From Amoebophrya sp. A120 (Eukaryota > Protista > Dinoflagellata), in the NCBI GenBank assembly GCA_905178155.1, contig CAJINV010000003.1:8313117-8377116 (forward strand): DNA of 64,000 nucleotides, written 5' to 3'. Positions 3,001 through 61,038 of this stretch are shown in pieces. The number at the start of each line of letters is the position of its first letter. Position 1 is the first letter of the stretch. The position numbers and the translations under genes were made by a program. The notes beneath the pieces were generated by a model that saw only the letters and a program-made list of their open reading frames with translations, ran no database searches and was not told the origin of the DNA.

Positions 3001-6000
3001 GCAAGGGGGCGGGGGCGGGGTGTTGCCGGCATGCATCAGGGGAACGTGGCGGGCGCCCCCCCGCCGCGGCGGGAATATTGCCCGCCTTGGCTCTAACTAC
3101 CGTTCGAAAAACGAGGAGCTGCTGCAAAAGATAAAATTGCCCGCTCGGGGCACAGCTCCCCCACCGGCCTTGTGGGTGTGCTTGGGTGGAGGCGGCGGCC
3201 GTTTCAACATCCCCCGCCGGCCCGGCCAGGTTCCGGGTGCGCCTGTATCCAAGGTCTTAGCCCGCGGCCGGCCCCGGGCTTCCGTGTGTGTTCCCGCAAG
3301 GCTTCGCGGTATGGAAGCTTTGGTTGTTGACCTTCCCAGGGTCGGGTCGATGCTTGTTCACCGGGCAAAAGCCAAGGCGCCGGCGAGCCATCGGCCCGAC
3401 TCGGCCTGTAGTTCAAAGCGCAGGCAATGCTAATGCGCGAAAGTGCTGGAAAGGGGCCACGCCCACGCGCAAGGGGGCGACGTTGCTAATTCACTGCCCT
3501 CCCACCGCGCCCGCCATCAAAAGCAAGGGCAGACATCAGCGGCGCCGGCTGCGGCCCGCTCCAACATTGACTGCATGCCGGCGCGGCGGCGGCCGGCGCC
3601 GTCCGGCTTGGGCGCGTGTGTTCTTTATCGCCAACAAGCTGGCGGGCGGCCAGCGAGCGCCTTCGGGCTGTGCCCGCGCACGTTCCTTCGTGCGGATTTT
3701 CGATGCTACCGCGAGGCGTCGCGATGTTGCGTTTCTGGGTCCCAAGCACCAGAAAGCACGCTTTTAGCACGTTCCGCAGGGTTCCGTTTTTGTACTTTGT
3801 CCCACCATACTGTCTACCGTTCGAAAAACGAGGAGCTGCTGCAGAAACTGCGAAAGCGGGTGCGGACGCTGGAAGACGAGCTCGAGGATGCGCGCGCAGA
3901 GCGGCTGCAGACCACGGAGAGTGGGCAGATCGTGTCGGGATCCAAAGAAACCGACCGCATTGTGCTCGCGCTCAACCAGGCAAACACAAACTACAAAATC
4001 GTGCTGACCCGGTACCGTAACTTCTTGCGGCAGCTCGAGCAGGACATGGCGAAGCGCAGCGATGACCTGGGGGGCGAAGAAGCAGGAGAGGGTGGCCAGC
4101 ACGCGACGAACAACAACAAGCAAGCTCTGGGCACGAAGTTTAGCGATCTGGCTGCGCTTGAGCGCGTGTGGAAGCGGTTTCAGGACCTGATGCAGGCTTT
4201 CGATAAGATCTCGGACTGTTCCCAAGGCGTGCGCCAGCTCGCCGGGGACGCGGCCAGGAAGCTTGCGCTCAGCAGCACTGCCCAGTCCGGCCAACATCCC
4301 GCTGCGAACTACGGCTGCTCTACCACTTCTGCTTCTCAACAAAGCACAATTGGAACCACTCCGAAAAATATTAACCTGTTGACCACGCCTGGGCTACTTG
4401 CAAGGAAGGATAGTCAACAACAACAAGATTCCGCTCGTGAAGATTCCGCGGACGTGACGAATGCGCGCCTCAACCGGCGCATCTTAGAGCTCGAAGCGCA
4501 GTTGCGCGGCGAGCATCGGCAGATGACAGGAAGCGCGGAGAGCTCCCCAGCGAAGTGGAGCCAAGCGTCTTCCCAAGTCGTCGGTACAAGTAGTGGCGTC
4601 CAGCACGCAGCGCCGGCCGCTGCGTCGTCTTCCACCTTCGCCAAGTTGGCCACGATGAATAATAGCTCGACCATATTGAGAGGAAAAATTCCCCCTCCCC
4701 ATATTGAAAAGGTATGTTTCCAAAAATTTGCGTTGCAGATTTGAGGCCACAAATCATATCTGTGTTGCAAGAAGACAAGGGCAGAAGCTTCCGCCCCATT
4801 ATGGAGGCGATTTGTCATGCTGTTGGGCCTAAAGGGGGTCCGTTTCCCATGCTGAACTGCTAGACCCGTACGCCACTACCCAGCCTGGGGATCTGGCCGC
4901 AGTGCCTCTCTGCAATACAAAGCTGATTTGTGGCCGCAAATCAGCATCACAAATTCGGCGAGATCAGCATCGCAAATTTTCGTTTTGATATGGGGAGGGG
5001 GGATGTTTCATTTTGATAGACCACGACCTCCTCGTCCCTGCGCACCACGCCCACATCTACGTTGCAGGCGCCCGGTTCCGCGGCCACCTCTCAAATGCAT
5101 GACCTCAAGGTGCAGAACATGCAGTTGCGGTCTCTAAACAAATACCTCTCGGGAGAGAAGGACCGCTGGAAGAGTGAAACGGAAACGGCAAAGACCGAGG
5201 TGGCTACTTTGCAAGCGCGCTCGTCTGAACTGCAGACCAAGCTGCGCCTCGCAGAAACTGCCTTAATATCGGAAGCACGCCAGGCCCAGAGCGGTCAGTC
5301 CAGCAGCACTTCCCGTGATGTGTCAACAACAGCATTGAACGTCGTAGACGAGGACCACGGACGGCAGGCTGGTGAGACTAGAACACGCACAAGCTCTTCC
5401 TTCGATGAGACGATGAAGGTCGAGGATCCGTTTCTTGCGTCTCCTGCAAAAACAGATAAGAATGTTCCAATGAAGAATTCGGACTTCAGCGACGCGCATT
5501 ACTTTTCCGGCAGAGTGCAGCAGTTGCTGGACCGCCAGCAAATGGAGAAAAAACGTGGTCCCACCTCTGCAGCAGGGTTCTCCTCGAACACGGCAGGAAC
5601 ATTTTTGCCAGACCGCAGCGAGGAAGATGATCAACAACAGTTGGATCATCGGGCGGAGCAAAATCGAAATGCAGCTTCCTTGTTCTGGAAGGAAGGCAAT
5701 CAGTTGGCTGCGTATGCGTCCAAGCAGCAGGCCATTGTCGACAAGCAGCGCGAAGAAATCGCAGTGCTGCGTTTGGAGCGGGAGAAGCTGGAACAGGACT
5801 TGCAGGAAAAGCACGTGGAGAGTAGTGAAATGCGCGAAAAATTGGGATCAGTAATGGCAGCGCGGCGCGACGCGGACCGGAACTACGCTCAGGCACAGAA
5901 GATGGTTTCTGATCTCGAGTCTCAACTGGCGCAGCAGCAGCGGGAATTCGACGAGAGCATGTGGATGAAGGGGGCGACGCTGCAGCTTGCAAAGGGGCTC

Positions 6001-59900: not shown

Positions 59901-61038
59901 AACAATTTTTCCGCCACTATGCAGCGGTTTTTGACATCCAAAACCGTCGCGTCGGACTCGCTCCGCTGAAGAAGGACATGAAAATGGCACAACGGGACCT
60001 GTTCTTCGGTATCGGTACGACTACGACAGGACAAGACCCACCTCCGGCGAGTGCTACCTCCGGGACGACTCCGGGGACAGCTAGCCGCTCCTCGACCGCA
60101 ACTGCCCGTCGCGGCCAGGTTGGTCACCCCAGTTCGTCTCTAGTTCAGCACGCACTCAAACCTCGGCTTGCACCCGGGCTAACCTATGCTGAAGATGTGG
60201 TGAGCTCCGCGAGTACACCTGGTGCAACAGGGGCGGTTTCCGGGATAGATATATCCCGCAGAAAAACAGTAGCACATGGACGATTTACATTTTTTCTAAA
60301 AATGGTTTGCACGAAAAGAATCACACACACGCTATGGCGATACAAAAGATACTTTGCATGATCGCGGAGATGAAGAACAACGGGGGCGGGGCTGGGCGTA
60401 CCATCTTCAAATCAAACGTGCTGGAGAATGTATGTGTTAGCTGTTTTTCTTTATGATGCGGCAAAGGCTTCTTGACCATAGCCGACGAGGTGCAGGACGA
60501 CGAGGGGAATAGGCAGGCTACCTCGCCTGTTGAAAGTAGTAGGAGTGCTTCCGCTTCTTCGCGTAAAGCTTTAGGGGGCTCTCGCGGCCGGGGTGCGCGA
60601 GTGGGACCACCGCCGAGAAGATACGTCACGCGCCCGTCTTCAGCGTCCGCCCCGACCTTGGGGTCCTCGTACAACAGTCCTGCCCAGGGTAGGGCGAGCA
60701 TGAGCAAAGCCAAAGTCGGGCTCATTGGATTAAGCAACGGTTTGGCGGAACTCGAACGAAACGCCTACGGATTGACCCATGCGCTGGCAGAGAGCTGCGA
60801 CTCCGGAAAGCCGATTGGTCGAACTCCCATGCCGAAATGCCAATACTTCTCCACCTTCGATTTTTGCAAGCGTGAACCTGCCCTGGCCTTCCATTTCTGC
60901 GCGCGCAGTTGCGGACTCTGTGGCGAGGAAAGAATACCCCCAAAAAAAGTTGTACACCCACACCCGCCAGATGAACAAAATTCAACTAAAATTTGTGTTG
61001 CTCAAAAAGCTAAAGTTGTCCTTTCACTAAAAACTTAA
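56927..61038 (+). CDS. Pepsin-family (A1) aspartic protease with C-terminal ShKT-like domain
   Basis: [26 protein letters not shown], flap TITYGTG, FDGILGL, second catalytic IALDTGSS, WILGQQFFRHY..FD..NRRVGLA; tail C..C..C..CARSCGLC. Introners at 57974, 58522 and 60252; GT-AG introns at 58866-59293 and 59581-59781. Start and extreme 3' end uncertain. Confidence 0.88.
57974..58312 (+). mobile_element. Introner, family B
   Basis: Right end GAGGGGGGAATTTTCCTCACAATA is shared with the ends at 22559 and 4674. TSD ACACG/ACGCG. Removing 344 nt restores D(T/A)TTITYGTG. Confidence 0.85.
58522..58803 (+). mobile_element. Introner
   Basis: TATCCTGAGGAAAAACCCACCCACACCAGAGT / ACTCTGGTGTGGGTACGTTTTTACTCAGGACA. 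TSD CAACC at 58517-58521 and 58804-58808. Confidence 0.9.
60252..60458 (+). mobile_element. Degenerate introner
   Basis: TATCCCGCAGAAAAACAGTAGCACAT / ATGTGTTAGCTGTTTTTCTTTATGATG. TSD eroded. Element + 5 = 212 nt joins ORF 59786 to ORF 60472 in frame. Confidence 0.65.

Follow-up and report, generated by a model that had tools for sequence, protein, structure and literature searches.

How does a cell remove introns that lack GT-AG ends? The question is raised by a 64,000-nt stretch of the dinoflagellate Amoebophrya sp. A120 (contig CAJINV010000003.1, positions 8,313,117 to 8,377,116; hereafter the window), in which 19 hairpin elements interrupt plus-strand open reading frames (ORFs). An earlier sequence-only reading had taken them for a second intron system, removed from RNA by a structure-guided mechanism. 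We found RNA removal of the element plus exactly 5 nt at eight joints and, on the sense strand, two invariant bases near the element ends. We give a probability of about 0.5 to the reading that introners are cut out with exactly these 5 nt, likely always in one register (from 1 nt before the 5′ TAT to 4 nt after the 3′ ATA, or -1/+4), and likely by a modified spliceosome.

Is this a new intron system? An exon of the PDI gene (15946-16326, 127 aa) matches an Amoebophrya sp. A120 protein at 100% identity and an A25 protein at 82%. Judging from sequence, the window elements are the A120 introner elements of Farhat et al. 2021 (PMC7789003), an already published class; the window holds the A120 system itself and thus not a newly found one. 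The link to Amoebophrya introners is firmer than the sequence-only reading put it: the strain is the same by protein identity and the published motif is the same. More than 60%, about two thirds, of A120 introns are non-canonical and RNA-supported; their inverted repeats of 8-20 nt start with TAT, followed by seven variable bases and then AAA, their direct repeats measure 3-5 nt (5 bp in the Fig. S19 legend), and their mean length is 240 nt (PMC7789003). An origin like that of miniature inverted-repeat transposable elements (MITEs) was proposed, and the cut sites were called variable relative to the hairpin, or unknown. The window elements share the TAT-N7-AAA arms, direct repeats, non-GT-AG ends, RNA support and lack of a transposase, and do not differ from those introners in kind. 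They differ from the published account in a strict 5-bp duplication, a single register fitting every joint and an A that is invariant on one strand only. We found no fixed register or branch point for these introns in the Amoebophrya literature of open-licence PMC and bioRxiv. The class itself is known; its mode of excision is still open in PMC7789003 and PMC11282704.

We compared the window with the contigs of four RNA runs from one sample (X3-X6), over the regions 6500-25228 and 20001-40000. Removal was seen at eight joints, five of listed elements and three of unlisted ones (6924, 7570 and 21152). At every non-canonical joint the skipped length was that of the element plus 5 nt, even where the direct repeat had decayed to 1/5 or 2/5 matching positions, and nearby GT-AG sites went unused at all eight. 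X3 also skips a GT-AG intron and therefore behaves as RNA. Precise excision had been proposed for every element: it holds at these eight joints and not at 24574, which is read through in the contigs of two of the four runs (X3 and X5), a result that may mask a minor spliced form. X3 coverage was low or nil around 29472, 35097, 35968, 38329 and 39256, and the raw-read runs X12 and X13 gave 12 and 155 mostly partial reads that left the stretch uncovered. Genomic DNA retains the elements: an X1 contig runs unbroken from 21103 to 25270 through 21152, 21645, 22275 and 24574, at depth 43 and with 0 differences. Absence from DNA, as of internal eliminated sequences (IES), was not seen at these four elements, with the limit that contigs drop rare variants. 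Summed X1 depth over several elements was thousands of times higher, which indicates that many related copies exist. The elements had been thought about as numerous as canonical introns; this stands for 6500-25228, where X3-X6 showed at least seven non-canonical removals and at least eight GT-AG joints.

Where do the cuts fall? Relative to the first T of the element, the first removed base is at -1 for 7228, at -2 or -1 for 21152, at -2 to 0 for 6924 and 21645, and at -4 to 0 for 7570; the three joints with perfect repeats allow any register. The sole register common to all eight is -1/+4, in which none has GT/GC...AG ends or ends in AG. The joints are suggestive of a fixed cut at -1/+4 in all eight removals. 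Indirect tests were less telling. Polarising repeat mismatches by GC/AT or by stop codons gave no register signal, and an apparent stop codon at L039 was due to a wrong reading frame. At the EF-hand junction in L068 there is a weak preference for -2 or lower, and the cyclase-associated-protein junction in L049 favors -2 to 0 only through a glycine that we presume to be conserved and that lies beyond the reach of the alignment. All nine top A120 motifs of Farhat's Table S4 have T at +2 (PMC7789003), as the -1/+4 register predicts.

The elements have the anatomy that the sequence-only reading ascribed to MITEs: terminal inverted repeats (TIRs), a target-site duplication (TSD) of fixed length, and short, non-coding, multi-copy bodies. 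All 19 insertions were present, with one start moved from 7225 to 7228 by its RNA joint. The 5-nt direct repeats match the earlier count, being perfect in 10 and 4/5 in four; the other five (7228, 38329, 46528, 50997 and 60252) agree at one or two positions. The chance of at least 10 perfect 5-mers among 19 is ~1e-25, the ends having been chosen partly with the repeat in view. The universal TAT...ATA ends came down to 14 of 19 (two are TAT...ATG, two TAT...ACA, and 43009 is TTA...TAA). Inverted repeats in nearly all elements came down to 13, whose arm duplexes fall among the lowest 5% in energy of 1000 randomly drawn window pairs; by this energy test 24574, 29472, 38329, 41692, 50997 and 57974 are within the random range. 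Sixteen of the 19 have TAT-N7-AAA on one or both arms (exceptions 21645, 43009 and 46528), and an internal motif common to the elements is enriched, yet without orientation by arm. Deleting each element with 5 nt leaves the join open in frame in 19/19, with just 40 aa open upstream of 50997, and retention puts an in-element stop into all 18 cases with a correctly set upstream frame. The joins give a 1564-aa channel-like ORF spanning four elements, a 1411-aa ORF spanning five, a 992-aa kinesin stretch spanning four and a 259-aa H2A-like protein. The join at 38329 restores what we take to be an EF-hand-like loop. At least six copies had been omitted (6924, 7570, 18196, 21152, 44215 and 44534). 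Thirteen of the 25 window elements, listed and unlisted (with the foldback at 52365 and two inserts in long duplications set apart), match other loci. Searches with the window gave 0 Rfam matches, no protein match for the channel exon and a best match of 58% for the glutathione reductase exon.

Is the 5-bp duplication genuine? An arm-motif search yielded 135 loci (410 kb), 134 of them from one other public assembly; they share families with the window, up to 92% over 301 nt, and no exon overlaps. The multi-copy family F1 gave 87 arm pairs; keeping nearest pairs left 83, and 77 of these were of normal length. Their ends were set by the inner motif only, which makes this the unbiased test of the 5-nt repeat, while the window ends were partly repeat-guided. 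The 5-bp duplication was exact in 64 of the 77 and had at most one mismatch in 74, and other lengths stayed at chance; the duplication is thus real, as had been proposed. The duplicated sequences differ in 62 of the 64, and orientation relative to the host gene is 6:6. The first 10 arm bases are fully complementary in just 7/77, because a small number of arm variants combine freely. The variants of the left arm (positions 4, 5, 7 and 10) assort independently of those of the right arm, though the duplications are fresh, and 12 of the 77 copies have a neighbor at >=95%; this suggests recombination or conversion among F1 ends. A search blind to family yielded 394 elements, while a 147-kb block-shuffled control gave 2, and among 345 testable ones a coding frame was called after removal in 268. 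With 150-nt flanks the frame test did not discriminate between duplication lengths; with 450-nt flanks long two-sided frames were found in 12/48 for +5, versus 3 for +3 and 3 for +4, and seven of the eight confident cases on the same strand fitted a codon model. Viral contigs contained no match to the arm pattern.

If structure alone guided removal, no base should be shared. We scored 239 copies at 58 loci of the other assembly (repeat matching at four or more of the five positions, no more than one deviation at the ends, strand by locus majority), oriented by the host gene. Strand calls agree in 167 of 173 neighbor pairs, and the Pfam strand agrees at all nine loci with a Pfam match. At arm position 3, there were 12 deviations in the 5′ arm and none in the 3′ arm (p=0.0005, ~0.003 over six positions). 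The base spared is the first A of the 3′ ATA, at intron position -7 in the -1/+4 register (0/239 deviants). Arm position 1 of the 5′ arm, U+2, also had 0/239 deviants, against 3 in the 3′ arm. Positions 2, 11, 12 and 13 were symmetric (5′:3′, 2:3, 4:7, 6:7 and 5:6). The position 3 bias was 7:0 with strand called per element (204 copies) and 11:1 in a looser set (268 copies); the three sets overlap and are not independent. A DNA inverted repeat is symmetric, so a bias by host strand should stem from RNA. A wobble pair would survive the A-to-G change never seen in the 3′ arm, and the T-to-C change allowed in the 5′ arm disrupts the pair; base identity is therefore kept, not pairing. Stem mismatches show no excess of G-U over A-C (5 vs 9, 14 vs 7 and 215 vs 200). 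The view of a purely structure-guided removal that uses no shared base thus lacks support in that form. An RNA strand read base-specifically at an invariant A points to a putative branch-point-like A-7 and, probably, to a modified spliceosome.

How might such introns arise and leave? A DDE-type transposase, presumably acting in trans, would insert the element in either orientation and into any sequence, with a 5-bp duplication. In RNA, the paired arms would draw the intron ends together and so replace the recognition of U1 and AG. The intron would read N-U-A...A-U-A-N4, with A-7, always equally far from the 3′ junction, as the branch nucleophile. Since 1+4 equals the length of the duplication, the mRNA would return exactly to its original form after a fresh insertion, whichever its orientation. 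We tentatively suggest, at somewhat less than even odds, that most A120 introns are taken out by a spliceosome that depends on neither U1 nor AG, draws its geometry from the transposon end, makes its 5′ cut one base before the TAT and has its branch at A-7. Two further parts of that joint proposal are held just as tentatively, that the 3′ cut would be fixed 7 nt past the branch and that every new insertion would be a scarless intron. The fixed register and the sense-strand A predict a single branch nucleotide and a single rule for the junction, checkable on existing RNA-seq. If true, they would explain how a transposon can fill coding sequence at low cost, and would imply a spliceosome, or a new nuclease-ligase, that operates without AG and probably without U1.

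Several observations weigh against the modified-spliceosome reading. Among the 19 listed elements, five were removed, 24574 was read through and 13 gave no RNA result, and all the RNA is of one sample and in contigs only. The register rests on four informative joints, one of them exact, and random cuts would agree with a chance of ~0.07. Eight of Farhat's nine top motifs have A at -2, versus 0/8 of our joints, which an opposite-strand reading might explain, and the splice sites published there vary relative to the hairpin (PMC7789003). The looser 268-copy set holds three deviants at the 5′ T (U+2) and one at A-7. In several elements A-7 lies within the predicted stem and would need unpairing to act as a branch, and TAT:ATA pairing is predicted to be low in 22275, 25234 and 6924, which are spliced. 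As to mobility, no autonomous, TIR-matched transposase copy of the kind suggested as a check by the sequence-only reading was found among the ORFs scanned in the window and in the 410 kb of loci, and Farhat et al. likewise report none from A120 (PMC7789003).

The strongest alternative, which we consider unlikely, is a non-spliceosomal endonuclease-ligase that would act on the same elements in the same register, measuring from the stem, recognizing U+2 and A-7 and releasing a circular product, as in euglenids. Such an enzyme would not require GT or AG, and the hairpin brings the intron ends close to each other. Nevertheless, the two invariant bases sit at positions read by the spliceosome, namely a U at +2 and an A close to the 3′ end; sense-strand stems show no wobble preference, and the weak-armed 21152 is still spliced. 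The spliceosomal inventory of A120 bears on both views: nearly all spliceosomal proteins and U2, U4, U5 and U6 were detected, while U1 was not found (PMC7789003). Like A120 introners, euglenid nonconventional introns have non-GT-AG ends, a terminal stem at a fixed offset and TSD-like repeats, with a MITE origin proposed and the mechanism open (PMC11282704, PMC11170887). Their stem pairs +4..+6 with -8..-6 (CAG/CTG) at pyrimidine|purine junctions, whereas A120 has TAT at +2..+4 and ATA at -7..-5, and they have been demonstrated to leave as circles, whereas the A120 introns are known here from RNA joints (PMC11282704). The CAG/CTG stem with pyrimidine|purine junctions was absent from the ends of the eight joints. 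The introns of Fritillaria borealis offer a spliceosomal parallel: they too are MITE-derived, with TIRs and TSDs, species-specific and the majority of introns, and are removed by an adapted spliceosome, but they have AG-AC/AG-AT ends and a TAC target, while A120 has a free target and no common terminal dinucleotide (PMC11282704).

It is improbable that removal is guided by structure with a cut that varies within the duplication, as drawn by Farhat et al. in the legends of Fig. 3 and Fig. S23 (PMC7789003), with -1/+4 arising by chance and selection for frame holding the total at 5. The ~0.07 chance that random cuts would agree and the unclear indirect tests would fit such a cut. However, no informative joint falls outside -2 to 0, and the strict asymmetry at A implies fixed geometry; aligners report variable sites at perfect repeats, which may explain the published spread. 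The sequence N-TATC resembles a U12 donor. A minor-spliceosome reading was set aside because Farhat et al. detected none of U11, U12, U4atac and U6atac in A120 (PMC7789003). Last, although reverse transcriptase may switch templates at a hairpin with direct repeats, and although the RNA nature of X3-X6 is presumed and the joints named for 20001-40000 are some of a larger number, swollen by repeat joints of the DNA run, gaps made by template switching, IES-like DNA elimination or empty-site alleles are very improbable, given that X3-X6 also skip nine GT-AG introns, that the DNA contig is unbroken across four elements, that the joint is exact in 4/4 runs where the repeat is 1/5, and that retention would put stops in conserved genes such as H2A.

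What mobilizes the elements? No transposase domain was found by Pfam in the two internal ORFs of 43009, nor in 84 of the 103 long ORFs, scanned in the 410 kb of loci (the others being duplicates or frames that overlap), and in eight long copies no stop-free frame exceeded 172 aa. An integrase-like DDE enzyme would fit a 5-bp duplication. A120 introner families have been classed as TIR DNA transposons, and among them family 38, which like the window elements consists of intron-making TIR elements, has integrase-like ORFs (Gozashti et al. 2025, PMC12130899), whereas a coding copy was not found among the elements here. The family 38 enzyme is a candidate mobilizer of the TAT-ended elements. The element at 43009-43866 is of a TTA type with 59% GC, and its ends resemble the A25-type motif within an A120 window; no TTA-type copy like it was found in the 410 kb of other loci.

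Table 1. Elements of the window, with positions, strand and the evidence for removal.
Element	Position	Strand	Evidence
TAT...ATA, perfect 5-nt repeat, kinesin gene	4674..5018	+	sequence, open join
unlisted, TAC...ATA, kinesin gene	6924..7150	+	RNA joint 6921->7154, 232 = 227+5, 4/4 runs
listed as 7225, repeat 1/5, cut fixed at -1/+4	7228..7459	+	RNA joint 7226->7464, no slide, 4/4 runs
unlisted, 4/5 repeat	7570..7688	+	RNA joint 7565->7690, 4/4 runs
unlisted, 7570 family, nested in GT-AG intron of PDI gene	18196..18349	+	GT-AG joint 18154->18587
TAT...ATG, H2A-like gene	20863..21130	+	RNA joint with 14-nt exon 21136-21149 (X4, X5); loose ends X3, X6
unlisted, repeat 2/5, cut -2 or -1	21152..21549	+	RNA joint 21149->21553
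4/5 repeat, cut -2..0	21645..21859	+	RNA joint 21642->21863, 4/4 runs
within histone H2A fold	22275..22559	+	RNA joint 22269->22560, 4/4 runs; H2A match
weak arms, shifted 3′ AAA box	24574..25020	+	read through, RNA contigs X3, X5 (pieces 23055-25228)
multi-copy family F1	25234..25490	+	X3 RNA joint 25228->25491, 262 = 257+5
perfect repeat	29472..29622	+	sequence, open join
4/5 repeat, two-pore K+ channel-like gene	35097..35410	+	sequence, open join
perfect repeat, two-pore K+ channel-like gene	35968..36177	+	sequence, open join
repeat 1/5, weak arms	38329..38822	+	sequence, open join
perfect repeat	39256..39464	+	sequence, open join
perfect repeat	41692..41842	+	sequence, open join
858-nt TTA...TAA, 30/30 inverted repeat, perfect 5-nt repeat	43009..43866	+	sequence, open join
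unlisted, 4/5 repeat	44215..44499	+	sequence, open join
unlisted, TAT...ATG, 3/5 repeat, behind 29-nt exon	44534..44847	+	1411-aa ORF
repeat 2/5	46528..46966	+	sequence, open join
TAT...ACA, repeat 1/5, short upstream frame	50997..51173	+	sequence
4/5 repeat, aspartyl protease gene	57974..58312	+	sequence, open join
TAT...ACA, perfect repeat, aspartyl protease gene	58522..58803	+	open join; 92% copy in L018
TAT...ATG, repeat 2/5	60252..60458	+	sequence, open join

The window holds further insertions and repeats. In the kinesin gene, a 38-bp exon piece occurs three times (2127-2164, 3097-3129 and 3812-3849) around GC-rich inserts (2165-3811; the first TTAG...CTAA). Three RNA contigs run unbroken farther upstream of 7464 than the 38-bp repeat, and their lengths suggest that the whole GC-rich insert and one 38-bp copy are absent from RNA. 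In a MYND-finger gene, two identical 51-bp copies (9930-9980 and 10602-10652) enclose an insert of 621 nt that matches the 29472 family at its 3′ end. The RNA contigs of all four runs break at the 51-bp repeat, so the insert is at least partly in RNA. The H2A.Z-like histone gene (20784-23330) has long extensions at both termini; it is interrupted by four hairpin introns and three GT-AG introns and includes an exon of 14 nt. The PDI gene has a 1.3-kb GT-AG intron (16329-17620) full of short CCTTCAGAAG-type direct and inverted repeats. Outside any ORF, a 307-bp near-perfect foldback (52365-52671; 97.7%) has TGT...ACA ends and a perfect 5-bp duplication. A region of repetitive, low-complexity ORF sequence, which seems to lie on the minus strand, spans 53038-56032 and includes a 100-N gap (55642-55741). 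A possible further TAT...ATA element with a small internal palindrome lies at 61178-61529.

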